From Gammaproteobacteria bacterium (GTDB lineage: Bacteria > Pseudomonadota > Gammaproteobacteria > JACKNK01): a stretch of DNA of 64,000 nucleotides. Where the stretch lies: contig JACKNK010000006.1 of assembly GCA_024234955.1 (NCBI GenBank), positions 204,782-268,781 on the forward strand, written 5' to 3'. The position numbers and the translations under genes were made by a program. Under the pieces are notes generated by a model. It ran no database searches. It worked only from the letters and a program-made list of their open reading frames with translations, and was not told the DNA's origin. Every line of letters begins with the position of its first letter. Positions within the stretch are counted from its first letter, which is position 1. Of this stretch, positions 3,406 to 34,476 are shown in pieces.

Positions 3406-3887
3406 GCGGATTGACCCACATCGACGAGACCGGCGCGGCGCGCATGGTGGATGTCGGCGAGAAAGCCATCACGCAGCGCGAGGCGACCGCCGCCGCACGC
3501 ATCCGCATGTTGCCGGAGACGCTGGCACTGATTGTTGCGGGCGGCCACAAGAAGGGCGACGTGCTGGCGGTGGCGCGCATCGCCGGTATTCAGGCGGCCA
3601 AGCAGACGCCGGCCCTGATCCCGCTCTGTCATCCGCTGATGCTCTCCAAGGTCAGCGTCGATCTGCAGCCCAACCCGGCAGAATCCTGCGTGGACATCAC
3701 CGCGACCTGCGGTCTGGCCGGGCAGACCGGTGTGGAGATGGAGGCGCTGACCGCCGCCTCGGTGGCCGCGCTGACGGTCTACGACATGTGCAAGGCGGTG
3801 GATCGCGGCATGGTGATTGAACAGGTCCGACTGCTGGAAAAGAAGGGCGGCAAGAGCGGCCATTGGGTCGCGGAGGACGAGGCATGA
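3402..3887 (+). CDS. moaC: Cyclic pyranopterin monophosphate synthase MoaC
   Basis: 161 aa. Contains ...[16 protein letters not shown]...[23 protein letters not shown], characteristic of MoaC. Confidence 0.9.
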
Positions 3888-4132
3888 TCCGCGTGCTTTA
3901 TTTCGCCCGTCTGCGTGAGGCACTGGGCAGCGATGGCGAACAGATCGCCCCCGACGTCGGCAATATCGCCGACCTGAAAGCGGTTTTGGCCGCACGAGGC
4001 GGGGTGTGGCAGAGCGAATTCGCCGACAACCCGCGTCTGCTGGCCTCGGTGAATCAGGACATGGCCGGCAACGACACGCCGGTCGTCGATGGCGATGAGG
4101 TTGGATTCTTTCCGCCGGTCACCGGCGGCTGA
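3884..4132 (+). CDS. moaD: Molybdopterin synthase sulfur-carrier subunit MoaD
   Basis: 82 aa ending in GG (…FFPPVTGG). Translationally coupled to moaC. No moaE follows. Confidence 0.8.
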
Positions 4133-5849
4133 AGGCGCTCCGACGCCGCCACACCAGGCCCAGCCAGATCAGCAAGCCAAGGCCGGATGACGCGAAACCG
4201 GCCCATTCCTGCGGCAACCTTTGCCATTCGGCGCGGAAGCGATGCCGGCCCGGCGGAACCTCAACCTGGATCAGACCGGACGGATTCGCGCTGCGGTGGG
4301 CAATGGGCGCATCGTCCCGGCGCATCGTCCAGGCCGGGAAGTCAAACATCGACAGGCGCAGGGGCACGGGGGTGGCGTGCGGATTGACCACCTCCCACTG
4401 CGTGGCGCGATCCGGCATCACGATGGATGCACATTCCAGCGACTGAAGGGCGCATTCCTTGGCCTGCCCGCCCTGTTCGAGCCATTCCAGCCAGGCGGAC
4501 AGTTGCGCCTCACCGGGGCGGAACTCCGGAATGCCCTTGAAAGGGGCCGTACGCAGCGCCTCGACATCCATTGGCCGACCTTCGATGAAATCCATCTTCA
4601 CCACCAGCCCGGCCCCGATCAGCAGATGCAGGGCCAGCAACGCGACCCCGATCCGGATTGCGCGGCGTGCGTGCGTGCGGATGGCGTGATCGAGCACCAG
4701 AACCAGCGCGAGCAGCGCCGTCAACTGCACCACGACCACAAAACGGAAGGGGAACTGCACTTTCAGGAGCGGACTGTCCAGCATCCACAGCGGGTAAGCG
4801 AGTTCGCTGCCGAGCGCCAACGCGACCCCTGAGACCATCAGCAAACCGGTTATGGCGCGGCGGCGCGGGGCGTCCATTTCTGCACCCTGACCGCGCAGAT
4901 ACCCGAATACGCCAAGCACTGTAGGCAGCAGCAGCAACGGCACCGCGACCTGCATCGTCGGCCAGCGCATGCCGTGCACCGGTGCGGTGAACACGGGCAG
5001 CAGGAAGGCGTTATCCGGCTTGTAGAACGCGGTCCAGTTGACGGTGCTGGCGAGATCGAACGAGGTGAGCGCGGGAATCAGATGCAAGCCGGCCAGCATC
5101 AGCGCGATGACGACGCTCAGCGCCCACCACCGCAACCAGCTGCCGAATCGGTTCCAGGGCCTGCCGTCACCGCGCCCGATGTGCCGCAACCCCAGGTGCC
5201 GCAACCCGAGGGCGCTGAATCCGATCAAGGCCATCAAGCCGGTGAGGGTGTGCATCAGGATGACCGCTGCCAGCGCCAGGATCACGCCGGGATCGAGCCG
5301 GCTTTCGGGGTCTCGATCCCCCCGCAGCAGCGCGTAGCCCAGCGCGGTGAGCGCGGCGAAGCTGGTTGCCCAGGGCAGGCCGCTGAAATGCAGCGCGATC
5401 AGGAAAGGCACAGGCGCCAGTTGCAGGGCCATCGCGCCCAGAGTGGCCGACAGCCGGGCAACGCCATGCGAACGGAACAGAGCCAACGCGAACGCCCCGG
5501 TAAGCAGACTTGCCGCCAGCTCGAAGATACGGATCGACACCCAGATGTCGTCGATCAGCAGATTGAGCAGCGCAACCCCGTAAAAGTAACCGGGGGCGTA
5601 GTACAGCAACGCCGGACTGCCCAGACCGTAATTGCTGGCATGCACCCAACGCGGATACAGCTCCAGATTCGCCAGGCTCGCGCCCATCTGATCGACCCAC
5701 AACAGATGGGCAATGAAGTCCATGTTCGGGGCGCCGACCTCGAACCACAGATGTGGCGACTGCACCAGGGCGGCGGTCAGCAACAGCGCCAGCCAGGATG
5801 TGGCCTGGGTAAGCCGGTGCGGCATCATGGATGCGAGGAGAGCGACCAT
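4119..5849 (-). CDS. Polytopic (about 13 TM) membrane protein with a roughly 180-aa C-terminal extracytoplasmic domain; putative GT-C-type (YfhO/ArnT-like) glycosyltransferase
   Basis: Start MVALLASMMPHRL. The alternative start MMPHRL at 5828 overlaps the upstream deacetylase stop as ATGA. Many hydrophobic helices, then a soluble tail. Last gene of a five-gene overlapping operon. The N-terminal 160 aa of the raw ORF is read-through of the neighbouring gene. Confidence 0.55.
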   Translation of the reverse strand: MVALLASMMPHRLTQATSWLALLLTAALVQSPHLWFEVGAPNMDFIAHLLWVDQMGASLANLELYPRWVHASNYGLGSPALLYYAPGYFYGVALLNLLIDDIWVSIRIFELAASLLTGAFALALFRSHGVARLSATLGAMALQLAPVPFLIALHFSGLPWATSFAALTALGYALLRGDRDPESRLDPGVILALAAVILMHTLTGLMALIGFSALGLRHLGLRHIGRGDGRPWNRFGSWLRWWALSVVIALMLAGLHLIPALTSFDLASTVNWTAFYKPDNAFLLPVFTAPVHGMRWPTMQVAVPLLLLPTVLGVFGYLRGQGAEMDAPRRRAITGLLMVSGVALALGSELAYPLWMLDSPLLKVQFPFRFVVVVQLTALLALVLVLDHAIRTHARRAIRIGVALLALHLLIGAGLVVKMDFIEGRPMDVEALRTAPFKGIPEFRPGEAQLSAWLEWLEQGGQAKECALQSLECASIVMPDRATQWEVVNPHATPVPLRLSMFDFPAWTMRRDDAPIAHRSANPSGLIQVEVPPGRHRFRAEWQRLPQEWAGFASSGLGLLIWLGLVWRRRSAFSRR

Positions 5850-6703
5850 TCCGGGAGGGTATCTCGCGGGATGTGCTTGTCGAGAAGCTCGCCAATGGGT
5901 GCGAAGCGGAAGTCGCGCAGCAGTTGCGGCACTTTGACCCGCATCGCATCCAGGCGGGTGTAATGCAGCAGGCGCTCGGCGAACGGCATGGGGATGCGCG
6001 GCTTGGCTGGATCGAATTCCGGCGGATGGATGTACACCATCGCGGCACGGCCACGCCGCTGACAATGGCGCAAGGCCGCTCGCACCAGGGGATAGGGCAG
6101 CAGGCGCAGATAGATGCCGCCGGCGATCGGTAGATTGCGCAGCGGGAAACGCAGCACGGTGGGCGGATATTCGATCAGGCTGTGACCGGCGGGTGTGTGC
6201 AGGCGGAACGGATCGTGCGGCGCATCCGGAATCCCGTAGATCGGGGTCCGGGTCGGATAGATGCTGGAGTCGTATTCGATGCCCGCCTCGGCGAGGATGT
6301 CCAACGCCCAGGCGGCCTCTCGGGTGATCGACCAATAGGCGGCGCGATACCCGCGCACCGGTCCGGCCCCTGCCCGATCCAGTGCCTCCAGGCTGCGCTG
6401 CAGGTCCTCCCGGAACTGTTCCGGGGTCTGGCGGTGCACCAGGCGATGCGCGTATCCGTGGCAGGCGAGTTCATGTCCGGCATCGGCGATGCGGCGGATC
6501 AAATCCGGATGACGCGCGGCAACATGCCCAAGCACGAAAAAGGTGCCACGTGCCTGACCATCGGCAAGCACCCTGAGCAGGGTTTCGGTGGTCTCGACCA
6601 CCCGATCCGGAACCCGCTCCCAATCGCCCTCGGACAACCCGAGCACGGAGTGATACCAGTCCTCGATATCGACGCTCAGCGCGATCGGCGTGGGCTCATG
6701 CAC
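5825..6703 (-). CDS. Polysaccharide deacetylase family protein (NodB-like with DUF3473 tail; PEP-CTERM-locus subfamily type)
   Basis: Contains SVDIEDWYH...GTFFVLGHVAARHPDLIRRIADAGHELACHGYAH (NodB catalytic motifs). Probable GTG start at 6703 overlapping the upstream GT2 stop. The long upstream extension of the raw ORF is rejected. Confidence 0.75.
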   Translation of the reverse strand: MHEPTPIALSVDIEDWYHSVLGLSEGDWERVPDRVVETTETLLRVLADGQARGTFFVLGHVAARHPDLIRRIADAGHELACHGYAHRLVHRQTPEQFREDLQRSLEALDRAGAGPVRGYRAAYWSITREAAWALDILAEAGIEYDSSIYPTRTPIYGIPDAPHDPFRLHTPAGHSLIEYPPTVLRFPLRNLPIAGGIYLRLLPYPLVRAALRHCQRRGRAAMVYIHPPEFDPAKPRIPMPFAERLLHYTRLDAMRVKVPQLLRDFRFAPIGELLDKHIPRDTLPEWSLSSHP

Positions 6704-7406
6704 GCCGACTGCCCGGCAATGCGATGGCGAGACGCAGCATGTTGCGCAGGGTGCGTGGGACGCGGCGGGCGATATTGATCGGCGCGGGACGCTTTTCTTC
6801 GATCTCCATCGGCAATTCGCAGACCCGCAGATCCGCACGCTCCATGCGGATCACCAGTTCGGTGGTGAAGATGTCCGCATCGGTCTGACATTCCGCCGCG
6901 ATGCGCTTGCCGTGATCGGCACGAAACGCCTTGATGCCGTGCGTGTCCGAACACTTCATGCGGAACGCCAGACGCAGGAAGGCGTTGAATCCCCAGGTGA
7001 TGAAGCGGCGCAGGCGGGGACGATTGTCGCGCGCGCCGGGGGCGCGCTTGGAACCGATCACGGCGTCATAGCGCCGCAACAGGACTTCGCTGATTTCCAC
7101 GAAGGCGACATCGTAGAAGTCGATCTCGAAACACACGATGTCCCGACCCCGCGCATCCAGGATGCCGGCCCGGAGCGCCCCACCGTAGTTCGGTTCGGGA
7201 TAGCGCAGAACCCGCAGACTGGGCAGCCGCTGGGCGAGTTCGGCGGCAATTTCTGCGGTGCCGTCGCGGCTGCCGTTCTCGCAAAGCACCAGTTCGTACT
7301 CGATGCCGAGCGCATCGATGCCGGCAGTGAGGTCGCCGACTGCCGCTTCGAGGATGCCCATCTCGTTGTAGACCGGGATGAGCACGGACACGGCGGGGGA
7401 GGTCAT
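6696..7406 (-). CDS. Family 2 glycosyltransferase, soluble (polyprenol-phosphate sugar synthase-like)
   Basis: 236 aa. MTSPAVSVLIPVYNE...; DxD-type GT2 fold; no TM segments. ATGA overlap with the upstream gene. Confidence 0.8.
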   Translation of the reverse strand: MTSPAVSVLIPVYNEMGILEAAVGDLTAGIDALGIEYELVLCENGSRDGTAEIAAELAQRLPSLRVLRYPEPNYGGALRAGILDARGRDIVCFEIDFYDVAFVEISEVLLRRYDAVIGSKRAPGARDNRPRLRRFITWGFNAFLRLAFRMKCSDTHGIKAFRADHGKRIAAECQTDADIFTTELVIRMERADLRVCELPMEIEEKRPAPINIARRVPRTLRNMLRLAIALPGSRRA

Positions 7407-8773
7407 TTCAGATCGGTCCCCGGGCTGGGCGTTGTCGGCGCGTTCTGCGGGATGCCGAGCAGACTTTGCGCGGCGTCACGCCCGTACAGAATGGCGTCTT
7501 CCATCGATGAATAATCCCACTTGCCGTATCGACCCGTGGAAAGGATGCCGTGTGCACGCAGAAATTCATGAATCGTCGCCGTGGCCTCAGCGTGATGCGC
7601 ATCGTAGATCACATAGGCATAGGGCATGCGCAACGGCCATTCCACGGCGATTTCGGATTCATCTTTCAGCCAGCCCATGTCTTTGAGCCCGGATATCGCG
7701 TCCGCACGCGCCTGCTCGGCATCCAGCGGGCGGTCCCGATTGTAGGACTGTTCCACCCAGACGCTGCTGTGACCGTCCGGTGCCATGCTGGGTGCAATGT
7801 TGCTGAAACAGCCGACGCGGTAGAACGGGTACTTCTCCTCCGGGACATACACCCAGTGACGCCCGCCGGTGTGGTTCGCCTTGATGCCCAGACACAGCGC
7901 CCAGACCGAACTCCAGGAAAGACGGTCGCAGGCCGCGCGCACCGGTTCGGGCAGGTCGGCGATCAAGGCGCACAGCACGGGCAGCGGCAAGGTGCTGATC
8001 AGGGTTTGATAGTCGGTTTCCAGGCCGGTATCGAAACCCACACGTCGATTCACCGCATCGATCCGCACCGCCTCGTGGGCATACTCGATGGGACCGGCAT
8101 GTCGAGCCCAGGCCTCGCTGAGAATCTGGATGCCGCCGTGGCGGGGATACTCAAAACGTGCGTTGTAGCCTGACGAGGCGTCGCGCAGGCCCAGCGCTCC
8201 GGCGACGACCTTGTCCAGCGGCGCTGGCGGCACGAATCGGTTCATCCAGTCCGTGGTCATGGCGGACGGCGGCACGCCCCAGAGTTTGGTGTTGTACGGA
8301 ATCATGAAATGGCGCGCGATCCCGTTGCCGACACTGTGACGAATCCAGGTTTCAAAATCGGGGGCGTCGCGCTCCGGGGTGCGTTCCGGGGCGCGGTCCT
8401 GGTCGCGCGCCGCGATATAGCCGAGCAGGCATTCATTCACCACGGGTAAAGGCAGGCCGTACAGATTGGTCTGGAACGGGTACGGCGTATACACGCGGTG
8501 CGAGTGGATCCAGGCATCTCGGGTAACGGTGGTCAGCTCGCCGGGCAGCCACTCGTTCACCTGCGCGGCGATCTTGGGGTCGCGGAAATGCAGAAAATGG
8601 CCGGTGTAATCGAAGCGGTAGGCGCCGTTCTGTTTGCTGCGCACCAAGCCCCCTGGCGTGGTCTCCTTTTCGAACAGGGCGACATTCGGGTGTTTGCCCC
8701 GCCGGAGGTGATAGGCAGCGCTCATCCCGGTCAGGCCCGCCCCCAATATCACGACGCGATCCGGGCGACTCAT
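7403..8773 (-). CDS. FAD-dependent oxidoreductase, UDP-galactopyranose mutase-like
   Basis: N-terminal Rossmann motif VVILGAGLTGMSAAYHL. RFDYTGHFLHF and IPYNTKLWG resemble the Glf motifs HKYGAHIFH and YTEKQWG. 456 aa; overlaps both neighbours. Confidence 0.55.
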   Translation of the reverse strand: MSRPDRVVILGAGLTGMSAAYHLRRGKHPNVALFEKETTPGGLVRSKQNGAYRFDYTGHFLHFRDPKIAAQVNEWLPGELTTVTRDAWIHSHRVYTPYPFQTNLYGLPLPVVNECLLGYIAARDQDRAPERTPERDAPDFETWIRHSVGNGIARHFMIPYNTKLWGVPPSAMTTDWMNRFVPPAPLDKVVAGALGLRDASSGYNARFEYPRHGGIQILSEAWARHAGPIEYAHEAVRIDAVNRRVGFDTGLETDYQTLISTLPLPVLCALIADLPEPVRAACDRLSWSSVWALCLGIKANHTGGRHWVYVPEEKYPFYRVGCFSNIAPSMAPDGHSSVWVEQSYNRDRPLDAEQARADAISGLKDMGWLKDESEIAVEWPLRMPYAYVIYDAHHAEATATIHEFLRAHGILSTGRYGKWDYSSMEDAILYGRDAAQSLLGIPQNAPTTPSPGTDLK

Positions 8774-9822
8774 TTCGACGCGGGCCCCACCTCGTCGCCA
8801 TGCAGCCGATTCAATGAGAAGCCCCCGACAATCAGATAGACAAGCCCGACCACGGTGATGGGTACGAAAAACGCGACATGCACCAGCAGCGAATAGGCGA
8901 TGGCCGTCTCGCTGCCGACATGGAACAAGGCAAGCGACTCGACCGTGGCGAGCTGTACCGCACCGATGTATCCAGGCGCCTGTGGCACCAGACAGGCGAT
9001 ATTCACCACAACCATGACGAATAACGCACTGTGCAACGGGATTTCCTGATCCAGGCCCAACGCCACCAGGACCATGAGATACATGCAGGCCTCAAAAATC
9101 CAGCGCAGATAAACCAACACCACGAGGCGAAACGACAGATGCGGTTGATCGGGCGTATTGGCCCCGATCAGGAAGCTGCTCAGATACCAGATGAGGTGAT
9201 TGGCCACACGCGGCGACTGCGGCGCAATCCAGCGTTCGATCAAGCCGCGTCGGAGCGCGTGCGAACGCCTGAGTACCATCAGGCCTAGGGAAAACAGCAA
9301 CATTCCCAGCAACAACCATTCGGATGCGTGCTTCAGCCATGTCGGATAGGGCAATACCAAGGTAATCACCAAGGCGACCGACAGCAGTGCATAGGCGTCG
9401 AGCAAGCGCTCAATCACAATGGAACCTAATGCGGTGGTCTTGCTGACAGGCTCACGCTCCCCGACCACATATGCCCGTGCGAACTCACCCAGTCGGGCAG
9501 GCAACAAATTGTTCGCCATATAACCGATCGCCACGGGCGAAAACAGGCGAACAACAGGGATCGTCGCACTCGGCATCAAGAGAATTCGCCAACCTGCGGC
9601 ACGCGCCACAAACCCAAGCAGACCCACCAAAGCACCGCCGAAAAACCAGCCCCAATCCGCCTGACGCAAGACCGCCCAGGTTTCTGCCCAGGAGATGTCG
9701 CGAAATGCAAGGTAACTGAAAACGACGCTCACGCTGATCGCAAGCAAGGTCGAAATGAAACGTCGCACGCTGGGAGTCATGATGCCTATTCGCAAAAAAT
9801 CGCCCGCCGGTTTATGCCGCAT
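8770..9822 (-). CDS. Flippase-like UPF0104 family membrane protein (lysylphosphatidylglycerol-synthase TM-domain family)
   Basis: 8-9 predicted TM helices; ...GYMANNLLPARLGEFARAYVV... is typical of the family. First gene of the operon. The start may be the internal M at 9780. Confidence 0.65.
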   Translation of the reverse strand: MRHKPAGDFLRIGIMTPSVRRFISTLLAISVSVVFSYLAFRDISWAETWAVLRQADWGWFFGGALVGLLGFVARAAGWRILLMPSATIPVVRLFSPVAIGYMANNLLPARLGEFARAYVVGEREPVSKTTALGSIVIERLLDAYALLSVALVITLVLPYPTWLKHASEWLLLGMLLFSLGLMVLRRSHALRRGLIERWIAPQSPRVANHLIWYLSSFLIGANTPDQPHLSFRLVVLVYLRWIFEACMYLMVLVALGLDQEIPLHSALFVMVVVNIACLVPQAPGYIGAVQLATVESLALFHVGSETAIAYSLLVHVAFFVPITVVGLVYLIVGGFSLNRLHGDEVGPASK

Positions 9823-9888
9823 CGGGGTATGGGGGGAGCGTAGCTAGCGCATCGAACAGGGTCAAAACCTGTGTGCTGATTTCGTCGG

Positions 9889-9917
9889 GTGCATCAGCAA
9901 ACGCTGATCGGTATAAT
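9889..9917 (+). promoter_or_regulatory. Candidate sigma70 promoter for the cytochrome c gene
   Basis: Perfect TATAAT at 9912-9917 with a weak -35 (GTGCAT) 17 nt upstream. About 100 nt upstream of the GTG start. Confidence 0.25.
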
Positions 9918-10021
9918 CCGAACGTTTTTCCGCCCGATTTCCATCAACCACGTTTTTAACTATTGCCACTTGGACCGCATTTCCGGTCTCACAGTTCGGC
10001 GCTTTTGCAAGGGGGTTCCGC

Positions 10022-10999
10022 GTGAGCGATCACGACAGCAGTTTCTTCAAGACCTTCGTCGGCGTACTCGGCTTTCTGGTTGTTCTCGCCTTCGTCATCT
10101 TCTTTGTTGCTCAGTACGTCATCGACAAGTCCGGCATCAACGACAACGCCGAAACCCAGTCGATCCGTGATGAAGCCATCGCCAAGCGCATCGCACCGGA
10201 AGGCAAGGTTCGCATGATGGGCGACGCCGAGATCGCCAGCGCCTCCGCCGGTGCCGCCTCCGCCGGTCCGAAGAGCGCCAAGGACATCGTCGCCGCGACC
10301 TGCGCCGGCTGTCATGGTTCGGGCGTGCTGGGTGCGCCGAAGATTGGCGACAAGGCGTCCTGGGACGCGCGTTATGCAGGCGGTCTGGATGCGCTGGTCG
10401 CCTCCGCGATCGCCGGCAAGGGTGCGATGCCCCCGCGCGGTGGCAATGCCTCGCTGTCCGACGAAGAAGTCCGCGCGGCCATCGAGCAGATGCTGGCCGA
10501 TTCGGGGCTTGACGTCAGCGTGTCCGACCTGACCGCCGGTGCTGCGGCCTCCGAAGCGGCCCCGACTGCGACGTCGGATGCGGCGCCCGTTGCCGAAGCG
10601 GAAACTGCGGCCAACCCGGTTGCGGCGGCCACTGAAGCGGTGACCCATGCCGCCAGCGCGATGGCCGACTCCGCCGCTGCGGTCGCCGGTAGCGTCGCGG
10701 ACGCTGCCGGTAACGCAGCGACAGCGGTCAGCGAAGCGGTTGCTCCGGCAGCCGACAGTGCGCGCGGCAAAGAGGTTTACGGCATGGCTTGTGTCGCTTG
10801 TCATGCCGTCGGTGTTGCCGGTGCCCCGCGTCTTGGCGACAAGGCCAGCTGGTCCGCACGCATTGCTCAGGGCATCGACACCCTGCACACGCATGCCCTG
10901 AAGGGCTTCCGTGGCATGCCGCCGAAGGGAGGCCGCATGGACCTGAGCGATTCGGACGTCGCCGCAGCGGTCGATTACATGGTCTCGCAGGCCCAGTAA
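10022..10999 (+). CDS. Membrane-anchored dihaem cytochrome c (c5-like domains)
   Basis: GTG start. N-terminal TM helix. Two CXXCH motifs (CAGCH, CVACH), each followed by GAMPPRG / GMPPKG. Ala-rich low-complexity linker between the two domains. Confidence 0.8.
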   Translation: MSDHDSSFFKTFVGVLGFLVVLAFVIFFVAQYVIDKSGINDNAETQSIRDEAIAKRIAPEGKVRMMGDAEIASASAGAASAGPKSAKDIVAATCAGCHGSGVLGAPKIGDKASWDARYAGGLDALVASAIAGKGAMPPRGGNASLSDEEVRAAIEQMLADSGLDVSVSDLTAGAAASEAAPTATSDAAPVAEAETAANPVAAATEAVTHAASAMADSAAAVAGSVADAAGNAATAVSEAVAPAADSARGKEVYGMACVACHAVGVAGAPRLGDKASWSARIAQGIDTLHTHALKGFRGMPPKGGRMDLSDSDVAAAVDYMVSQAQ

Positions 11000-11049
11000 T
11001 CCCTTGAATTGACCGATGGCGTGACGCCATCGGTCAAACGCTTCATGAA

Positions 11050-11086
11050 AAGCCCCATGCCGGATTCCGGTGTGGGGCTTTTTTTA
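11050..11086 (+). terminator. Rho-independent terminator
   Basis: GCCCCA-TG-CCGGA-T-TCCGG-TG-TGGGGC nested hairpin followed by TTTTTTT, 50 nt after the cytochrome c stop. Confidence 0.7.
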
Positions 11087-11373: not shown

Positions 11374-11853
11374 TCAGCCCGGATAGATCGCCACCACGCG
11401 CCACTGCCAATCGGCAAACCCGAGGCGAAAATGCAGCGGGTTTCTGCCCAATTCGCCGACACGCACCATGAATCGATTCCAGTTATCGAAGAAGGCGTAA
11501 TCGATCCGACCGACGAGGGGGGGAAACTGCCCTTTTCGCGCCTCAGCGCCGGCAAGCTGGCCGCGCACCCAGTCCACATCGACCACGGTATCGACGGCAC
11601 TCTCACCCAAACGCTTGGCGCCCGCCCGGAGCATGCTGGAAATGGGGTCATCCCCCTGTCCGATGGCGGAGTTGGCCCGTTGTTCTATGCGGGTGCGCTG
11701 ATCTTCCTTGACCGTTGCGATGTCGATCAACGCGGCCAGTGTGGCCTTGTCATTCGCTTGCAGGGCCTGATCCAGGCGGTAAATCTGGGCATAGGGATAG
11801 GCCACCCAGAGGATGGCGGCGATAAGGATCAGGGAGGACAGCAGTTTCTTCAT
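11374..11853 (-). CDS. DUF2939-like periplasmic protein
   Basis: 159 aa. N-terminal signal/anchor MKKLLSSLILIAAILWVAY. Overlaps the stop of the upstream PEP-CTERM gene. Confidence 0.5.
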   Translation of the reverse strand: MKKLLSSLILIAAILWVAYPYAQIYRLDQALQANDKATLAALIDIATVKEDQRTRIEQRANSAIGQGDDPISSMLRAGAKRLGESAVDTVVDVDWVRGQLAGAEARKGQFPPLVGRIDYAFFDNWNRFMVRVGELGRNPLHFRLGFADWQWRVVAIYPG

Positions 11854-12878
11854 GTGACTCGTCGCAGTAAGGGAATGGTGGCCGACAACATCAGCAACAA
11901 GGTTGCCGGCTCGGGAATGGGCATTTCAACGCTGTTGATCGCGGCGACCACCGCACCGGCGGCGGCAATCCGGTTGTTGGTGTCGAAGCGGATGCTCTGT
12001 TCCATCTCGATATGCACGAAATCGGCGCCCAGGGACCGGGTGTAATCCCCCTGCACATTGGTGGTCGCGCCGAGGCCGGCGAAGTCCTGTCCATCGACTG
12101 AACCGTTGATGGCCTGGTTCAGCACATCATTTACGTCAAGCGTGTTGTAGCCGTAGGTCACCAGTCCCGCCGCTTCGAGAAACGCATCGACGGCGAGCAT
12201 ACCGCTGCTAACGCTGCCGTCGCCCGCCGTGACCACGGCATCGGTATCGGCGGGCATGATCGGATGATTGTCCAGGTTGAAACCGTGTATCTGCCAGGCG
12301 TCGCGTTCCCCGGCCCCGGTCCACGCTTCATGCACTTCCTGAAAGATCGATTCGGTCAGGTGGGCCACATCGGCGGTCCCGACACCGTTGGCATTGCGGT
12401 GCGCGCCCGCCATCAGGAACCCTGCCGCGTTCACATCCCGGTAGATGCTGGCGGCGATTTCCCAGCTGTTGGTGTCAAAGCGCGGGTGCGGCGCCTCGAT
12501 CAGGACCTGGACATCGGCGCCGGTGTTGAAAAAGTACGATCCCCAGCCACGGGTCTGCTGATCGTTGACCAGTTGCTCACGCAGGCCGAGATACGTGTTC
12601 CCGGTGTTGCTGTCGGTGAATTCAACGACTTCGTAGTCCAGGGCGGCGGCCTGCGCATCCGCCGAGACCGTATCGCCACTGGCGATGCTGTTGGCGAGAC
12701 TGCGAAAGGCGCTGCGTTGGGCCAGATCCGGCGCCACATACAGATTGCTCCCGGAGACGAAACTGAGGTTCTTGAGGCGCTCGACTTCATCAATGAAGCT
12801 GCCGCTCTCGATGAGCATGGCCTGGGCCTGACTGCCCATGAACAAAATACCGGCGGCGACCAATCTTTCCAGACGCAT
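11850..12878 (-). CDS. Secreted protein with a C-terminal PEP-CTERM sorting signal (putative exosortase substrate), function unknown
   Basis: Start MRLERLVAAGILFMGSQAQA is a signal peptide. C-terminus PIPEPATLLLMLSATIPLLRRVT has a PEP motif, a TM helix and basic residues. The raw ORF's long N-terminal extension (694 aa) is rejected. Confidence 0.65.
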   Translation of the reverse strand: MRLERLVAAGILFMGSQAQAMLIESGSFIDEVERLKNLSFVSGSNLYVAPDLAQRSAFRSLANSIASGDTVSADAQAAALDYEVVEFTDSNTGNTYLGLREQLVNDQQTRGWGSYFFNTGADVQVLIEAPHPRFDTNSWEIAASIYRDVNAAGFLMAGAHRNANGVGTADVAHLTESIFQEVHEAWTGAGERDAWQIHGFNLDNHPIMPADTDAVVTAGDGSVSSGMLAVDAFLEAAGLVTYGYNTLDVNDVLNQAINGSVDGQDFAGLGATTNVQGDYTRSLGADFVHIEMEQSIRFDTNNRIAAAGAVVAAINSVEMPIPEPATLLLMLSATIPLLRRVT

Positions 12879-15185: not shown

Positions 15186-16256
15186 TCAGTCGTATCGCCG
15201 AAAACCGATCAGAGCGAGGCCGGCACCCAACAGTGCCAGCGGCATCGGCATCGGAACGCCATTGAGTTGGTCCGGGGTCAGCAACAACACATGGCGGTTG
15301 CCATTGATATCCAGCGCATCGACCAGGATCTGACCGAGATCGTTGATGGCATTGGCGCGTTCAATCGTCCAGCCCGTTGCCCCGGGATCGAGCAGGGTAT
15401 TGAGGTCATAGAACATGCCACCGCTGAACAAGAAGGCATAAATACCGGAAAGCCCATCGACGTAACCGATCGCCTGACCGTAATTATTGACATCCTGGGC
15501 GTAGGACCAGCGTTCGCCTGACAAGGCGCCCAAGTCCACCAGATCACCATTCGCTTCCCAGAGAATTGCATGGGTATCGCCGCCGGCCGTCTGGGCCCAT
15601 CCGACCGTGACGTTGTTGTCGTTGATGGCGTTGGCGCGAGCGCCCTGATTGGAATCCAGACCATCCAGGGTAACGACATCGCCATTGCTGGTGGCCCGGA
15701 AGCCGCGCTGCACGCTGCCGCCGTTGGCTTCATAGTGGCCGGCAATGGTGCCGCTTGCGTTGATGTCCAGGCCTTCGCTATACGTCGGCCCGAGTTCGGC
15801 CAATGGCGCACCGGTGCTGATGTCGTCGGCCCAGCGCGTCGCTTCACCCGTGCCGTTGTTGTAGACCGTCCCCGCAATCTGGCCACTATTGTTGATGGCG
15901 CCGACATAGGAGCCGCTACCGGTATGGCTCAGCGTATTGCTGGTCGTTCCGGAGAAGGATTGGGTGCTGTAGCCAGCCCCGATATATCCCACCACCGTTC
16001 CGGAGTCGTTGATGCCGACGCCTCTTCCGGTGCCCAGGACGGTCTCGGTGACCCCCCCGAACGTGTCCCACCGCACCGCATTTCCATCATGCGTACCGGC
16101 GATCTGTCCGGATTCGTTCAGGTCCAGGCCTTCCACGTCCGCGCTCAATCCGATGCCCTGAGCGACATCCGTGATGGTGAAGACCACGGCGTGTGCGGAA
16201 GCCCCGAGGATCAGCGAGAACGCGCCGATGAATATTGCCAAGCGGTTCGACGTCAT
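15186..16256 (-). CDS. HAF-repeat extracellular protein with a variant PEP-CTERM-like C-terminal anchor
   Basis: Signal peptide MTSNRLAIFIGAFSLILGASAHA. Repeated NDSGTVVGY / NNSGQIAGT / NASGTIAGH / NNYGQAIGY units. Tail VPMPMPLALLGAGLALIGFRRYD. GGAG Shine-Dalgarno before the second ATG, at 16256. Confidence 0.65.
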   Translation of the reverse strand: MTSNRLAIFIGAFSLILGASAHAVVFTITDVAQGIGLSADVEGLDLNESGQIAGTHDGNAVRWDTFGGVTETVLGTGRGVGINDSGTVVGYIGAGYSTQSFSGTTSNTLSHTGSGSYVGAINNSGQIAGTVYNNGTGEATRWADDISTGAPLAELGPTYSEGLDINASGTIAGHYEANGGSVQRGFRATSNGDVVTLDGLDSNQGARANAINDNNVTVGWAQTAGGDTHAILWEANGDLVDLGALSGERWSYAQDVNNYGQAIGYVDGLSGIYAFLFSGGMFYDLNTLLDPGATGWTIERANAINDLGQILVDALDINGNRHVLLLTPDQLNGVPMPMPLALLGAGLALIGFRRYD

Positions 16257-20956: not shown

Positions 20957-21931
20957 ATGCCCATGCAGCTTGACGTCATCCGCGATTTGGTCGCCGACGA
21001 TCTGCGCGCGGTCGATACCCTGATCCAGGACCGCCTCCGTTCCGACGTCGCCCTTGTCAATCAACTGGGCGCGTACATCGTCAACAGTGGTGGCAAACGC
21101 CTCCGCCCGCTTCTTGTCGTCCTTGCCGCGCGTGCCTGCGGTTATCGCGGCGATCGTCATGTCGATCTTGCCGCGATCGTCGAATTCATTCATACCGCAA
21201 CCCTGTTGCACGACGATGTCGTTGATGCGTCCGATTTGCGCCGTGGCCGCGACACCGCGAATGCGCTTTGGGGGAATGAGGCCAGCGTTTTGGTCGGCGA
21301 CTTCCTCTACTCCCGCGCCTTCCAGATGATGACGGCGCTGCATGAACTGCGGATCATGGAAATCCTCGCCGTCACCACCAACGTGATCGCGGAAGGCGAG
21401 GTGCTGCAGCTGATGAATTGCCATGACCCGGACGTGGACGAGGCCGGTTACATGGCGGTCATCCGTTACAAGACCGCCAAGTTGTTCGAGGCCGGGACCC
21501 GTCTGGGCGCGGTGATCAATCAGGATGACGCGGCCATCGAGTCCGCGATGGCCGCTTACGGCATGCATCTAGGGACGGCGTTCCAGATCATCGACGATGT
21601 GCTCGATTACAGCTCCGACAGCGATGAAATGGGCAAAAATGTCGGCGACGATCTCGCCGAGGGCAAACCCACGCTGCCGTTGATTTATGTGATGCGTCAT
21701 GGCGATCCGACGCAGGCGGCGGTGGTGCGCAAAGCCATCGAGGAAGGGGGCCGCGACAAGATCGACGCGGTGATCAAAGCGATTGAATCGACCGATGCCA
21801 TCCCCTACACTACGCGGCTCGCGCGACAGGAGGCAGATCTCGCCAAGGCGGCTCTCGCCCAGCTACCTGCCTCTCCGTATCGCGAAGCGCTGTTGGCCTT
21901 GGCGGATTTCGCGGTCGAACGTAGTCACTGA
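20957..21931 (+). CDS. ispB: Octaprenyl-diphosphate synthase (trans-polyprenyl synthetase)
   Basis: DDxxD motifs LLHDDVVDASDLRRG and FQIIDDVLD. 324 aa. Confidence 0.85.
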   Translation: MPMQLDVIRDLVADDLRAVDTLIQDRLRSDVALVNQLGAYIVNSGGKRLRPLLVVLAARACGYRGDRHVDLAAIVEFIHTATLLHDDVVDASDLRRGRDTANALWGNEASVLVGDFLYSRAFQMMTALHELRIMEILAVTTNVIAEGEVLQLMNCHDPDVDEAGYMAVIRYKTAKLFEAGTRLGAVINQDDAAIESAMAAYGMHLGTAFQIIDDVLDYSSDSDEMGKNVGDDLAEGKPTLPLIYVMRHGDPTQAAVVRKAIEEGGRDKIDAVIKAIESTDAIPYTTRLARQEADLAKAALAQLPASPYREALLALADFAVERSH

Positions 21932-21974
21932 TCCGGTGGCGGCGTTAGCGGTTCTCCAGCAACGCGTTCATTTC

Positions 21975-22053
<79 letters not shown>

Positions 22054-28788: not shown

Positions 28789-29625
28789 CTATCCGGGGTG
28801 ATCGGTGGGTTTGTGACCGGTGGCAACAAAGACGGCGGCGAAGCCCCAGGCTTCGGGATCGTCGCTGATCTGACGGATCACGGCTTCTTCCGCCTGACCG
28901 AGCTGCTTCTGTTCGTCGCTGAGCTGTTCGAGTTTGAAGCCGGTGGTGATGTCGAGAAAGTTGCGCATGCCGAGGTCGGCACTGGTCACGGTATGCACGA
29001 ACACGCCAACCTGATCGAACCCGTTGCGCGCCAGCAGGGTGCCAAGCTTGCGCCCGACATGGCGGTCACCTCCCCGTGCCTGCTGAGCCTGGGCGGCACG
29101 TTGCGTGAACGAGGTGAAGGTTTCCGGTTCCGGGAACAGCGTCAGCCAATCGTCATCGATGTCGAGAATCGCAAGAATGCCGCCCGGCTTTAGTGTGCGC
29201 AGAGCCGCTTCGAAGGCGCGTTCCGGGTGTTCGAGATGCTGAAACAGGAAACGTGCGTAAATGAAATCGAACTGCGCCTCGCCCAGATCGAGTTCATAGA
29301 CATTGGCCTGCTGGAAACGGAGATTCGTCAGCCCGGCGGCGTCCGCCGCCGCCTGCGCTTCCTTGAGCAGATCGGGACTCAGGTCAACACCCGTGACCCG
29401 ACCGTTACCCACCATGCGCGCGATCTCGCAACTGACGATCCCGGGGCCGCAGGCCATGTCCAGGACATCCATGCCTTCCCGCAATCCGGCCCGACTGAGC
29501 AACTGACGTTCCAGCGCGGTGGCAATCGCCGCCTGCTGCTTCAGACGATCGAGCTCCTTCTGGTTCTCATCGAAGCTGCCAAAGGCGTAGGAACCCGCAG
29601 CGGTATGGGTATTGCTGGTGCTCAT
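28789..29625 (-). CDS. Class I SAM-dependent methyltransferase
   Basis: VLDMACGPGIVS is motif I. 278 aa. ATGA overlap with the upstream gene. Confidence 0.75.
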   Translation of the reverse strand: MSTSNTHTAAGSYAFGSFDENQKELDRLKQQAAIATALERQLLSRAGLREGMDVLDMACGPGIVSCEIARMVGNGRVTGVDLSPDLLKEAQAAADAAGLTNLRFQQANVYELDLGEAQFDFIYARFLFQHLEHPERAFEAALRTLKPGGILAILDIDDDWLTLFPEPETFTSFTQRAAQAQQARGGDRHVGRKLGTLLARNGFDQVGVFVHTVTSADLGMRNFLDITTGFKLEQLSDEQKQLGQAEEAVIRQISDDPEAWGFAAVFVATGHKPTDHPG

Positions 29626-30809
29626 TCGTTTTCGGTTTCCTCAAGTTGTTGCAGGGTATCGAGCCAGTTCTGGGTGGTGCCGCGCAGGCGCTCGCAGAGA
29701 ATCACCGACAGATTCAGCAGCACCGGGGCAACGATTTCCGGCATCTTTTTCAAGGCGCGCTTGATGAAGGACTGGGTCAGGATCAGCAGTTCCATATCGG
29801 TATTGGCCACCACCTGGGCGGTGCGCGGCGTCTTGGCGACGAACGCGATCTCGCCGAACACCTGACCAGGACCGACCACCGCCAGGGAATGGCGTTTGCC
29901 ATCCGCATCCCGCCCCCAGACCTCGGCGACGCCATCGAGCACGACGAACATCTCGTTACCGATGTCCCCCGGACGGATGATGATCTCACCCGCCTTGCAG
30001 GGCAGCACCGTACCGGAATCCAGAAAGGCCCGCGCCTGCACTTCGTCCAGGCCTTTGAGCAGGCCGATGCCTTCGCGCGGATCGACATGCAGGCGGTCTT
30101 CCATCAAGGCCCAGAACCCATCGGTATCGACCAGGCGCTTGTTGATATGGACGGCATGCGCCGGGAATTCCGCGATAAACCATGCGGTCCCGGTCGCATC
30201 CGCCGGCAGTTTGCGGGCCTCGCGCCAGAACGGGGAGCGCACCGCCCTCATGTGTTCGATGTCCTCGGCCATGAACACCAGCGGGACGTGGTAGCCGGCA
30301 TCCTTGTCCATGAAGCCATCGGCGTAACGGCGATACCCGAGCTGCTCGTAAAACTCGACCAGGGACGGGGTGCAATTGCAGAAATCGAAACGCACGCCGT
30401 TTTCGCGGGCGAAGCGGAATATGGCCGCGAGCAACGCGGCGAGAACCGTGGACCCGCGCCAGTCCGGCGCCACCATCAGGCGAGAGGTCATGGACAGGGA
30501 TTTCGCGGGAAATTCGGCCCAATGTTCGAGCTGATAAATCCGGTTCCAGTACGCATCGAAGCCGGTCTCACCCGCGAGATTGATGCGCACCGTGGCCACA
30601 ATCTCTTCCCCGGCGGCGGCATAAAGCAGGGTCGCTTCATCGTCCAACGGGTCGTAAAGTCGCTTGCCCGCATGGTCGGCGTAGCTCGGGCGTTTGCCCA
30701 TTTCTTCTACGTAAACCGCATAGCGAAACCGATAAATACGCTCCCGCTCCGCTTCCGTAGCGGCAACCTGAATCTCAGGCCGGACGAGATTATCGATGGA
30801 TTCGTTCAC
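29622..30809 (-). CDS. Autoinducer-synthase-like N-acyl amino acid synthase (GNAT) fused to a C-terminal cNMP-binding domain
   Basis: N-terminal half RIYRFRYAVYVEEMGKRP…FCNCTPSLVEFYEQLGYRRY resembles LuxI/FeeM-type acyltransferases (exosortase-associated N-acyl amino acid synthase family). C-terminal half …PGQVFGEIAFVAKTPRTAQVVANTDMELLIL… is a cNMP-binding domain. 395 aa. Confidence 0.6.
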   Translation of the reverse strand: MNESIDNLVRPEIQVAATEAERERIYRFRYAVYVEEMGKRPSYADHAGKRLYDPLDDEATLLYAAAGEEIVATVRINLAGETGFDAYWNRIYQLEHWAEFPAKSLSMTSRLMVAPDWRGSTVLAALLAAIFRFARENGVRFDFCNCTPSLVEFYEQLGYRRYADGFMDKDAGYHVPLVFMAEDIEHMRAVRSPFWREARKLPADATGTAWFIAEFPAHAVHINKRLVDTDGFWALMEDRLHVDPREGIGLLKGLDEVQARAFLDSGTVLPCKAGEIIIRPGDIGNEMFVVLDGVAEVWGRDADGKRHSLAVVGPGQVFGEIAFVAKTPRTAQVVANTDMELLILTQSFIKRALKKMPEIVAPVLLNLSVILCERLRGTTQNWLDTLQQLEETENE

Positions 30810-30847
30810 AAGGGCTCCGCATCAATGTCGAGAAATACGCACCGGAT

Positions 30848-30864
30848 TGTAATAAACAGTTACT
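30848..30864. promoter_or_regulatory. Imperfect inverted repeat TGTAA-N7-TTACT in the divergent promoter region; candidate regulator operator
   Basis: Lies in an AT-rich 120-bp intergenic region between the two divergent operons. Half-sites are reverse complements apart from the last base. Confidence 0.2.
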
Positions 30865-30929
30865 TTCTTGATCGCTGTCCGCATCGTATTCTTACCCGAC
30901 TCAGAGTTTCTGTTCCAAGTCATTGATAA

Positions 30930-32249
30930 ATGAAACGTCTTCTTTCCCTGACGCTTTTCGTCACCTGTTTGTCAACCACCACCCCAGGTGTGGCCGGCAT
31001 TGTCGAAGACATCCAAAAGCTATTCCAATCGGGAGATGCCGCCGGTGCTTACGCGCTTGGACAGCAACACCTGCTGGCGCTGGAGGGAGATCCGGCCTTC
31101 GACTACGAATACGGTGTGGCCGCCATTGATGCAGGCCATTACAGCCAAGGGGTATTTGCGCTCGAACGTGTGCTGCTGCAGACGCCAAATGATCACCGTA
31201 CCCGCCTTGAGCTCGCACGCGGCTATTTCTTGCTGGAACAGTTTGATCGGGCGCGCAAGGAATTCGAAACCGTGCTGGCATCGGAGCCCCCCCAAAGCGT
31301 GGCGGAAAATATCCAGCGCTTCCTCAACATCATCCGAATCCAGGAAGGCCGATACAAATCCACGGCCAGCCTCACCCTGGATCTTGATCGCGGCTGGGAC
31401 AGCAACGTCAACAGCGCGCCCTTCAGCCCAAACTTCGAGTCCCCCGTGCTTGGCCCAGGCACTCTGGCGGCTGGGTCCACCCAACTCGGTGATTATTACA
31501 CTGAGGCCAATGTCGGAACGTCGCTGACCATCCCGGTTTCACCAGGCCGTTACATCGGTGCGGCTTTCGACATCCATCACCGCAGCAACGATCAGCGGGA
31601 TCTGTTTGATACCGACGCACAGACCCTGACCCTGTCCCTCACCGACAATGTCGACACCCTGCAGACCCGCTTCGCTTTCCGTGCGCAGAACTACGAGCTC
31701 GACCACAGCACCTACCGAACCTTGGGCAGCCTTTCCGTCGACGCGCGTCAAACACTCAGTGCGGACACCCAGATCACCGGGTTCCTCAGTTTGGCGAGCC
31801 AACATTACCCTGGGGGAGATGTTCGCGACTCACACCTGATGAACGCAGGTATCGGCGTCATTCACGCCTTGCCGCTTCCGGGTAAACCAGTCGCCTTTGC
31901 CACCGCGTACATTGGTCAGGAAACGCCCCGCCAGAACAACACCGACGCTGATGTGGTGGCCAATCGAGCGATCAAGGGACTGAGCGGTGGGATCCAATGG
32001 ACGCTTGGACCCTCGACCAGTCTGACAGCTACGCTCGCATGGCAGAACAGCCGCTATGCAGGCGAGAGCCCGATCTTTCTCGCCCGTCGCGAGGACGATT
32101 TTGGCAGTGCCGGCGTCACCCTCAAACACCTGCTTGATGACCGATGGAGTCTCAGTGCGGAATTGAGCACCTCCACCAACGACTCCAATTTCGCGATCAA
32201 CAAATACGACCGTGATGTGGTCAACATGAACTTGCGTTACGAGTACTGA
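30930..32249 (+). CDS. Outer-membrane protein with N-terminal TPR-like domain and C-terminal beta-barrel (DUF560 / Slam-like surface-protein translocon)
   Basis: Signal peptide MKRLLSLTLFVTCLSTTTPGVAG. TPR-like helices. Alternating amphipathic strands. C-terminal …MNLRYEY with an aromatic last residue. Confidence 0.5.
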   Translation: MKRLLSLTLFVTCLSTTTPGVAGIVEDIQKLFQSGDAAGAYALGQQHLLALEGDPAFDYEYGVAAIDAGHYSQGVFALERVLLQTPNDHRTRLELARGYFLLEQFDRARKEFETVLASEPPQSVAENIQRFLNIIRIQEGRYKSTASLTLDLDRGWDSNVNSAPFSPNFESPVLGPGTLAAGSTQLGDYYTEANVGTSLTIPVSPGRYIGAAFDIHHRSNDQRDLFDTDAQTLTLSLTDNVDTLQTRFAFRAQNYELDHSTYRTLGSLSVDARQTLSADTQITGFLSLASQHYPGGDVRDSHLMNAGIGVIHALPLPGKPVAFATAYIGQETPRQNNTDADVVANRAIKGLSGGIQWTLGPSTSLTATLAWQNSRYAGESPIFLARREDDFGSAGVTLKHLLDDRWSLSAELSTSTNDSNFAINKYDRDVVNMNLRYEY

Positions 32250-32260
32250 CGCTCGTCTCA

Positions 32261-34474: not shown

Positions 34475-34476
34475 CC

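Follow-up and report, generated by a model that had tools for sequence, protein, structure and literature searches.

The DNA analyzed here, a stretch of 64,000 nucleotides (nt) from a gammaproteobacterial contig (JACKNK010000006.1; the whole stretch is referred to below as the window), carries at 4119-9822 on the minus strand five back-to-back open reading frames (ORFs) with an overlap at every junction, as an original prediction made from the sequence letters alone had described. In transcription order these genes, A to E, encode a UPF0104 flippase-like protein, a flavoprotein of the UDP-galactopyranose mutase (UGM) class, a soluble family 2 glycosyltransferase (GT2), a NodB-type deacetylase and a GT-C-like membrane protein; the same identities had been predicted, and are upheld by profile hidden Markov models (HMMs), matches to PDB entries and structural models. 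Most likely, the operon serves to build a ring-contracted amino sugar on a lipid carrier, flip it and attach it to an envelope molecule. The genes are arranged as follows.

8770-9780, minus strand: gene A, 336 amino acids (aa); the longest ORF would begin at 9822
7403-8773, minus strand: gene B, 456 aa
6696-7406, minus strand: gene C, 236 aa
5825-6703, minus strand: gene D, 292 aa, GTG start
4119-5828, minus strand: gene E, 569 aa; alternative in-frame ATG at 5849

Read on the reverse strand, the A/B and B/C junctions are both ATGA (4-nt overlaps), and D begins inside C at GTG 6703 to give an overlap of 8 nt, ATG 6699 being out of frame for gene D. The D/E overlap is 4 nt (again ATGA) from ATG 5828 and 25 nt from ATG 5849, so that the predicted range of 4-8 nt for all overlaps is correct with the former start of E (4, 4, 8, and 4 nt) and incorrect with the start at 5849 on which the original prediction had itself relied. 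An independent metagenome contig encoding identical proteins carries gene calls of 336 aa for A (start 9780) and 569 aa for E (start 5828); for gene A, this independent call and the length of orthologues favor ATG 9780 as the probable start.

The best Pfam matches of B are Amino_oxidase (1.8e-12) and NAD_binding_8 only, and sources label its family as 'protoporphyrinogen oxidase' or 'FAD-dependent oxidoreductase.' A phmmer search of PDB sequences nevertheless aligned residues 6-452 of B with the UGM of Trypanosoma cruzi (4dsg) at 3.6e-53 and matched the UGM of Aspergillus fumigatus (AfUGM; 3ute) at 6e-44, whereas matches to protoporphyrinogen, amino-acid, and amine oxidases reached ~1e-5 and were confined to the first ~50 residues, the Rossmann N-terminus. 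The AlphaFold2 (AF2) model of B, with a predicted local distance difference test score (pLDDT) of 90.3, superposes on 4dsg with a template-modeling score (TM-score) of 0.88 and a root-mean-square deviation of 2.5 Å, compared with TM-scores of 0.69-0.75 to protoporphyrinogen oxidases and 0.64-0.67 to amine oxidases. Both comparisons bear out the prediction that B is related to UGM and not to amine oxidases. Functional residues were compared using the AfUGM mutagenesis targets named in the titles of PDB entries, mapped via the phmmer alignment: seven of the eight probed residues (AfUGM H63, Y104, Q107, R182, N207, Y317, and R327, corresponding to B H59, Y98, Q101, R179, N204, Y309, and R319) are the same in B, and are invariant or nearly so across 24 homologues of 42-77% identity.

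B does not belong to the curated bacterial Glf equivalog TIGR00031, its score against that model (16.6 bits) lying far below the cut-off of 303.75. Instead, B falls in the eukaryote-type branch (NCBIfam PRK07208, 'hypothetical protein'), although it scores below the cut-offs there too. With the eukaryote-type UGMs 4dsg and 3ute it shares full-length alignment at 26-28% identity, TM-scores of 0.87-0.88, the histidine loop, and the residues that bind UDP and galactopyranose (Galp); it differs from them in being bacterial, in being about 30-55 residues shorter, and in a C-terminal motif, GRYGxW(D/E)YSSMED, that contains a two-residue deletion relative to eukaryotic UGMs and that we take to resemble the motif of bacterial Glf sequences. 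By sequence and predicted fold, B is a UGM-class enzyme of a branch so far studied only in eukaryotes, and it is proposed to act as a nucleotide-sugar pyranose-to-furanose mutase. The bacterial part of this branch comprises at least 2,860 homologues, found at no fewer than 557 genome loci.

Gene A encodes a full-length LPG_synthase_TM/UPF0104 protein (PF03706, 8.3e-42 in Pfam) that also scores 72 bits against the NCBIfam model TIGR00374 'flippase-like domain,' for which the cut-off is 43. About eight hydrophobic segments indicate a polytopic membrane protein resembling the flippase domain of MprF; a search of PDB sequences gave no match at E<=1. Since no GtrA, SMR, MATE, or Wzx flippase is encoded in the operon, A is its sole flippase candidate. 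Gene C, a GT2 (PF00535, 5.5e-13 in Pfam), has no hydrophobic segment. When PDB was searched with a profile built from eight orthologues of C, the longest matches were to GtrB (4.5e-17), an archaeal dolichyl-phosphate mannose synthase (4.9e-16) and ArnC (3.7e-14). The near-full-length NCBIfam matches of C were to dolichyl-phosphate hexose transferase, PpgS, and AglJ, all far under their cut-offs, and its score against the ArnC model was 35 bits with a cut-off of 529. On these similarities, C is proposed to be a polyprenyl-phosphate sugar synthase acting on the product of B.

Gene D consists of a NodB/CE4 domain (PF01522, 2.7e-21 in Pfam) followed by a C-terminal DUF3473 domain (PF11959, 1.5e-38), for which our search of open-access literature found no paper. 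The CE4 residues D12, D15, H82, H86, R120, Y123, and H226 are invariant among six orthologues. The protein has no signal peptide, transmembrane (TM) helix, or hydrophobic segment and is predicted to be cytoplasmic; a role as de-N-acetylase of a lipid-linked sugar is proposed. Against the model TIGR03006 'XrtA system polysaccharide deacetylase,' D scores 285.1 bits and so passes the cut-off of 276.2 by only 9 bits. Deacetylases of the same module in Planctomycetota and other lineages score between 270 and 289 bits; because these orthologues from unrelated lineages straddle the cut-off, the XrtA label of D is a borderline family call.

Gene E had no match in Pfam or NCBIfam at default thresholds, and at a relaxed threshold it reached only 9.1 bits (E 0.55) against PF10131 PTPS_related, below the gathering cut-off of 26.4. 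Its close relatives amount to four unannotated 90% clusters among 5.8 billion proteins, and its weak relatives carry PF10131 and in some cases, faintly, PF09586 (YfhO). Direct HMM scans were thus insufficient, and the family membership of E rests on profile methods: hhalign joined the E subfamily to PF10131-bearing proteins end to end over 524 columns (12-559) with a probability of 99.93% and an E-value of 1.4e-35, and a profile combining the two retrieved 15,539 clusters of proteins of about 560-600 aa. PF10131 is listed as a member of the GT-C clan CL0111 (PMC7801869); no characterized member of PTPS_related was found. In keeping with this, the significant PDB matches of the AF2 model of E (pLDDT 76.8, predicted TM-score 0.79) in a Foldseek search were all GT-C enzymes: STT3, AftA, ArnT, Pmt4, PglB, Emb, AftD, and ALG6.

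The model helices, the arginine-rich cytoplasmic loops of E (at ~208-233, 311-325, and 382-392) and the inward location of both termini, which requires an even number of helices, together point to about 12 TM helices in place of the 13 originally predicted. A beta-sandwich domain at residues ~465-535, predicted to be periplasmic, precedes the last TM helix. Among 13 sequences, at least 90% have Asp37, which follows TM helix 1 and is predicted to lie in periplasmic loop 1, and further conserved motifs (YPRW58-61, GLGSP68-72, RW288-289, W348, and QFPxR358-362) are predicted to face the periplasm as well. The YPRW, GLGSP, and QFPWR motifs, the C-terminal beta domain and the final TM helix are common to E and members of PF10131. 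These results agree with the prediction of a GT-C-like protein with an acidic periplasmic residue, and E is proposed to be a divergent PTPS_related/YfhO-type GT-C glycosyltransferase and a candidate for transfer to a periplasmic acceptor. Two distant homologues of E (P0011 and P0006) are stand-alone genes.

The predicted conservation of the cluster as a unit was confirmed, its five functions recurring in Planctomycetota, Bacteroidota, and other lineages. A Chromatiales metagenome-assembled genome (MAG; L003) matches the operon in all five genes, their order, and their flanks while its E is only 55% identical, so that the arrangement is not a matter of chance. Beyond this, the neighborhoods of distant B homologues (45-56% identity) showed the following gene orders.

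Locus L007: LPG_synthase_TM, B, GT2, NodB/DUF3473, and a 490-aa protein without a PMT_2 match or an assigned family
Planctomycetota locus (L008/L093): LPG_synthase_TM, 705-aa protein, GT2, PMT_2, GT4, GT2, B, GT2, NodB/DUF3473, and a 540-aa protein with a weak PMT_2 match
Locus L009: 680-aa protein with a weak PMT_2 match, B, GT2, NodB/DUF3473; LPG_synthase_TM nearby
Bacteroidota MAG (L015): PMT_2, LPG_synthase_TM, a B::GT2 fusion, PMT_2, NodB/DUF3473, each scoring significantly in Pfam

All five functions are thus clustered at L003/L004, L008/L093, L009, and L015, and four of them at L007. The gene immediately after that of the GT2 encodes the deacetylase in Gammaproteobacteria, Planctomycetota, L007, and L009; in the Bacteroidota locus, one GT-C gene comes between the two. 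The PMT_2 matches of the large membrane proteins at L008 and L009 are sub-threshold, whereas those at L015 are clearly significant. The idea of a single orthologous GT-C protein across the modules was abandoned, the profile of E giving less than 1% probability in hhalign against the L007, L008, and L009 proteins; the refilling of the GT-C position by PMT_2-type proteins looks like non-orthologous displacement in which function would be kept.

Two single polypeptides, P0246 and the product of 8992-11079 at L015 (720 and 695 aa, respectively), are natural fusions of B to C, the GT2 half of P0246 being 53% identical to C, and such fusions show that B and C are directly coupled. A wider sample, the best 80 of at least 557 genome loci with B homologues, was drawn mostly from Myxococcota. 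The specific GT2 adjoins B at 55 of these 80 loci and the deacetylase at 13, and few have a flippase or GT-C neighbor; the neighbor HMMs were built in-house and are narrow, so that these counts are lower bounds and flippase and GT-C neighbors were probably undercounted. The result is a hierarchy, with a B-C core, then B-C-D, then the full five-function module, assembled in several phyla. In Elusimicrobia (L037/L060) and Pedobacter (L078), members of the B family belong to polysaccharide clusters of the ordinary kind. At L037, the neighborhood also encodes a WecA/MraY-like PF00953 protein, a GT4, a GT2, and PMT_2 proteins, and at L078 a GT4 and a Wzx-like Polysacc_synt protein. This occurrence in polysaccharide clusters of other phyla fits a role in nucleotide-sugar supply and makes the B family, from context, a candidate for a general bacterial furanose-supply enzyme. 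On a myxococcal chromosome (OZ223209; L087 11139-14109), a unit of UGM-like, GT2, and NodB genes is followed by genes for a PlsC-type acyltransferase and an NAD-dependent epimerase, a context which hints that the freed amine may be re-acylated in some lineages or that the product may be a lipid.

With moderate confidence, we regard the operon as a transmembrane glycosylation system with several components, of the Arn/Gtr type, to which a mutase and a deacetylase have been added. From the gene layout, the family and fold assignments, the conserved catalytic residues, the B-C fusions, and the recurrence across phyla, we infer a scheme in which the sugar, its lipid carrier, the order of the steps, the substrate of A, and the acceptor are all proposals. 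B would contract a UDP-hexopyranose to the furanose form, UDP-N-acetylgalactosamine (UDP-GalNAc) or UDP-galactose (UDP-Gal) being the likeliest substrates. C would then move the furanose onto undecaprenyl phosphate at the cytoplasmic face, where D could strip the N-acetyl group from the lipid-linked sugar to leave a cationic amino sugar. A would flip the lipid-linked sugar to the periplasmic leaflet, and E, with Asp37 in periplasmic loop 1 as the candidate catalytic residue, would transfer it to an envelope acceptor, which may be lipopolysaccharide (LPS) or lipid A, exopolysaccharide (EPS), or protein. The presence of a deacetylase suggests that the sugar is probably N-acetylated; UDP-GalNAc is therefore a reasonable guess for the substrate, and the product would be a cationic amino-furanose. 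A bacterial mutase that acts on UDP-GalNAc is known. The proposed order of steps is modeled by analogy on two described schemes. In the Arn pathway, the first enzyme is ArnC, after which the lipid-linked sugar is deformylated by ArnD, flipped by ArnE/F, and transferred by ArnT (PMC7911091), and in the scheme of Kelly et al. a cytoplasmic auxiliary enzyme edits an undecaprenyl-phosphate-linked furanose ahead of a MATE flippase and a GT-C enzyme (PMC11127046). The original prediction had invoked the three-component logic of CsbB/GtcA/YfhO- and ArnC/ArnEF/ArnT-type systems; the family identification of each component was upheld, the mechanism itself keeping the standing of a proposal. To the precedents it named can be added tailoring of the ArnD type and, as a real rival, the HexSDF/GpgSDF pathways discussed below.

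ArnD is a NodB-family enzyme, and the lipid A systems LgmABC and FlmF2/NaxD/FlmK, which handle glucosamine or galactosamine (GlcN/GalN), share the logic of Arn; ArnD, NaxD, and LgmC perform parallel deacylations in lipid A modification. As in the scheme proposed here, the Arn pathway employs a GT2 from which undecaprenyl phosphate receives an N-acylated amino sugar, a deacylase in the cytoplasm, a flippase, and a periplasmic GT-C enzyme (PMC7911091). No protein of the operon is orthologous to an Arn protein, however: the flippase candidate is of the UPF0104 and not the ArnE/F type, the GT-C protein is PTPS_related and not ArnT, and the ArnA/ArnB sugar-nucleotide branch is absent, with a UGM-class mutase instead. 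The GtrA/GtrB/GtrV (O-antigen) and CsbB/GtcA/YfhO (teichoic acid) systems likewise consist, as is proposed for the operon, of a GT2 that makes a polyprenyl-phosphate sugar, of a flippase, and of a GT-C enzyme; GtrB is the best match of the C profile, and faint YfhO matches (PF09586) occur in the wider family of E. They differ in that C lacks a TM anchor, that the flippase candidate belongs to another family and has about eight TM helices where theirs are small, and that the operon also contains a mutase and a deacetylase.

A second set of parallels concerns furanoses. In the pentofuranose system of Citrobacter youngae (ORF15, the enzyme PPPRS; ORF14, a MATE flippase; ORF12, GT136; ORF13, an epimerase) and in the mycobacterial DPA/Aft/Emb system, an extracytoplasmic furanose is added from a polyprenyl-phosphate donor by a GT-C enzyme that has an additional beta domain in the periplasm, and a cytoplasmic auxiliary enzyme diversifies the lipid-linked sugar, as proposed here (PMC11127046). 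The pentofuranose systems start from phosphoribosyl pyrophosphate (PRPP) and use a phosphoribosyltransferase, whereas the operon would rely on a flavin mutase and a Leloir-type GT2 to derive its furanose from a UDP-hexose, and a hexofuranose is therefore implied; galactofuranose (Galf), mutases, and deacetylases go unmentioned in the account of those systems (PMC11127046). Tentatively, and with more doubt than attaches to the Arn/Gtr-type reading as a whole, the operon can be suggested to make and use an undecaprenyl-phosphate amino-hexofuranose, for example galactofuranosamine (GalfN) from the furanose form of UDP-GalNAc (UDP-GalNAcf), as the first parallel among hexofuranoses to the three-component systems for pentofuranoses. 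No precedent for a lipid-linked hexofuranose (Galf) donor used with a GT-C enzyme was found in the open-access papers searched.

Two further comparisons involve UPF0104 itself. The HexSDF operon of Clostridioides difficile and GpgSDF of Pseudomonas aeruginosa also join a glycosyltransferase and a deacetylase to a UPF0104 flippase resembling MprF, and place a free amino sugar on a membrane lipid as the operon is proposed to do (PMC10128005, PMC12713373). Their synthases belong to other glycosyltransferase families, GpgD is of the COG3233 family, neither system includes a mutase or a GT-C enzyme, and their product is a terminal glycerolipid and not a donor. In archaea, where Makarova et al. (2015) predicted for UPF0104 (arCOG00899) the role of a flippase in glycosylation, its genes adjoin those of AglD-like GT2 and PMT/STT3-like proteins and, separately, those of a polysaccharide deacetylase and a glycosyltransferase (PMC5898192); here, a single bacterial operon unites the two contexts and contains a UGM-class mutase besides. 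The operon is functionally like Arn, Lgm, and Gtr yet is a member of none of them, with no orthologous component, and it differs from described systems in the UGM-class mutase it contains, the UPF0104 flippase candidate, the NodB/DUF3473 deacetylase, and the PTPS_related GT-C protein. Its logic is an expected extension of known systems.

Several observations weigh against this scheme. Phe66 of AfUGM, an active-site residue mutated in PDB entry 4u8i, is replaced in B by His62, which is invariant in all 24 bacterial homologues aligned, and B may therefore have a substrate specificity other than that of UGM. C is without the TM helices that GtrB and ArnC possess, and its E-values against these two are modest, which leaves room for a glycerolipid acceptor. 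The profile of D matched only generic CE4 structures in PDB, with no specific kinship to ArnD; CE4 enzymes can also remove O-acetyl groups, and if B-C pairs without D handle plain Galf the substrate of D in this operon is questionable. The TM-scores of E to solved GT-C structures are just 0.3-0.45. Most myxococcal B-C pairs have neither D nor a flippase or GT-C gene in their vicinity, and the core pair is accordingly not strictly dependent on the other three genes in cis. Finally, flipping of polyprenyl-linked sugars by UPF0104 proteins is a prediction only (PMC5898192), the family being tied by experiment solely to phospholipid and glycolipid pathways, those of MprF, HexF, and GpgF (PMC12713373, PMC10128005).

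The last point leads to the strongest rival, an aminoglycolipid pathway like HexSDF and GpgSDF in which the lipid is the end product. C would put an N-acetyl-hexose, as a furanose made through B, on phosphatidylglycerol (PG) or a glycosyl-diacylglycerol, D would deacetylate it to a cationic or zwitterionic lipid and A would flip it to the outer leaflet, leaving E as an accessory or as the user of the glycolipid in a further step. Operons of a synthase, a deacetylase, and a UPF0104 protein do make aminohexosyl-hexosyldiradylglycerol (HNHDRG; PMC10128005) and GlcN-PG (PMC12713373), A is in the same family as HexF and GpgF, and the occurrence of A, C, and D in one operon matches the pattern of flippase, glycosyltransferase, and deacetylase. 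The myxococcal B-C and B-C-D units that lack a nearby GT-C or flippase gene, one of them followed by a PlsC-type acyltransferase, would be compatible with this. D has in addition a weak match to DUF2334 (3e-4), which we take to represent the COG3233 family of GpgD, but at 20.8 bits against a cut-off of 26 it is sub-threshold, and D is a NodB/DUF3473 protein and not of the GpgD type. Nor does C resemble the synthases concerned: it is a GT2 whose closest relatives are polyprenyl-phosphate transferases, whereas HexS and GpgS are by annotation an MGDG-synthase/MurG-like enzyme and a GT4, respectively (PMC10128005, PMC12713373). A GT-C gene is present in the unit in at least five lineages, its family swapped between them, which is hard to square with a lipid that is itself the final product, since GT-C enzymes draw on lipid-phosphate-linked donors. 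No precedent for a furanosyl aminoglycolipid was found in the open-access papers searched, and we consider this alternative unlikely. Less probable still is the association with an exosortase (XrtA/PEP-CTERM) EPS pathway to which the original prediction had pointed, where the EPS repeat would gain a furanose through B and C, D would act as deacetylase of the polymer, E and A would export or ligate it, and PEP-CTERM proteins would be its partners in the matrix. It was suggested by the subtype of the deacetylase and by two secreted proteins with PEP-CTERM-like tails that are encoded 2 and 5.4 kb upstream of the operon.

11850-12878, minus strand: PEP-CTERM-like protein 1, 342 aa, secreted, C-terminus PIPEPATLLLMLSATIPLLRRVT, no family match
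15186-16256, minus strand: PEP-CTERM-like protein 2, secreted, HAF repeats (TIGR02913, 4e-12), C-terminus VPMPMPLALLGAGLALIGFRRYD, a variant without the PEP triplet

Unrelated genes separate both proteins from the operon, and neither matched a sorting-signal model when searched against the whole NCBIfam library. D does pass the TIGR03006 cut-off, but module deacetylases from lineages without such a context straddle it too, and the subtype is not supported as a pointer to exosortase. The annotated parts of the window contain no exosortase, Wzx/Wzy, Wza/Wzc, or priming transferase, and the genes on either side of the operon are moaD/moaC/moeA and a cytochrome c gene, not EPS genes. Amidotransferases of the asparagine-synthase type do lie near the module in two other lineages, that of L009 scoring 58 bits where the XrtA amidotransferase cut-off is 817 bits. 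The exosortase association is on this evidence improbable. Lowest in probability, and in our judgment very improbable, is that B is a redox flavoenzyme acting on a sugar or lipid, by DprE1-like epimerization or amine oxidation, with a different modified pyranose as product. The Amino_oxidase match in Pfam, the names given to the family, and the invariant histidine at the position of AfUGM F66 would be accounted for in this way; the UGM match, however, covers the full length and surpasses that to any oxidase by about 48 orders of magnitude, the TM-score of 0.88 to UGM compares with at most 0.75 to oxidases, and seven of the eight probed UGM residues are retained. An origin from hopanoid genes of the Hpn type (HpnB, HpnE, and HpnL-like) was also considered and rejected, the matches being negligible (7e-4 for HpnB, and only the Rossmann N-terminus for HpnE).

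Lipid-linked donors known to date are hexopyranoses (Gtr, Csb), 4-amino-4-deoxy-L-arabinose (Ara4N; Arn), and PRPP-derived pentofuranoses. If the Arn/Gtr-type reading with its ring-contracted sugar is true, extracytoplasmic glycosylation from lipid-linked donors would be extended to hexofuranoses made by a flavin mutase, and the hexofuranose proposal would provide a first function for the bacterial eukaryote-type UGMs, for PTPS_related GT-C proteins, and for UPF0104 proteins as flippases of polyprenyl-linked sugars. Very large unstudied families, with some 15,500 clusters for E and PTPS_related and the 2,860 or more homologues of B, would gain functions that can be tested, and there would be a genetic context in which to ask whether UPF0104 flips polyprenyl-linked sugars besides phospholipids. 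By analogy with the Arn, Lgm, and Hex systems, an envelope sugar that is deacetylated and cationic would be expected to alter the charge of the surface and the resistance to cationic antimicrobials. For heterologous reconstitution, the B-C fusions and the five-gene operon, compact as it is, are handy material.

On its 3' side, the operon converges on a MoaD/ThiS-like gene (3884-4132, plus strand), beyond which moaC and moeA are situated. Because gene E overlaps the MoaD/ThiS-like gene by 14 nt, an intrinsic terminator would have no space between the moeA-moaC-moaD operon and that for glycosylation; the corresponding genes of the Chromatiales MAG lie 24 nt apart without overlap. On the 5' side, a dihaem cytochrome c gene (10022-10999, plus strand) is divergent from the operon, and the intervening region is the only non-coding gap that adjoins it.

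9781-10021: intergenic region between gene A and the dihaem cytochrome c gene, ~240 bp

The operon promoter presumably lies within this gap. A promoter and terminator scan of 3800-10100 gave no more than the shuffled expectation, with no sigma-70 consensus or terminator in the gap, and a scan with Rfam found no match there. With Moa genes and cytochrome c as its flanks, the operon appears as a self-contained insertion among housekeeping genes, and the remaining annotated genes of the window are of the same kind (Moa, cytochrome c, M61 peptidase, Pol I, PilMNOPQ, citrate synthase, GlmS, and ATP synthase). Across the window, the Rfam and tRNA scans had a sole match, tRNA-Pro(CGG) at 21975-22051, the only tRNA present. 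A polyprenyl-diphosphate synthase gene (PF00348, 7e-82) precedes this tRNA within 20957-22051, ~11 kb from the operon, and is probably an ordinary gene of the IspB type unrelated to it. Further along, 28789-37167 is occupied by a cluster with a cyclic-nucleotide theme, in which a CMAS-like methyltransferase, a FeeM/N-acyl-amino-acid-synthase-like acetyltransferase fused to a cNMP-binding domain (29622-30809, minus strand), and a separate cNMP-binding protein encoded next to the methyltransferase and acetyltransferase genes are followed by a TPR protein, a CHASE2-guanylate/adenylate cyclase (32261-34474), and then an 896-aa FecR-domain protein (34477-37167).

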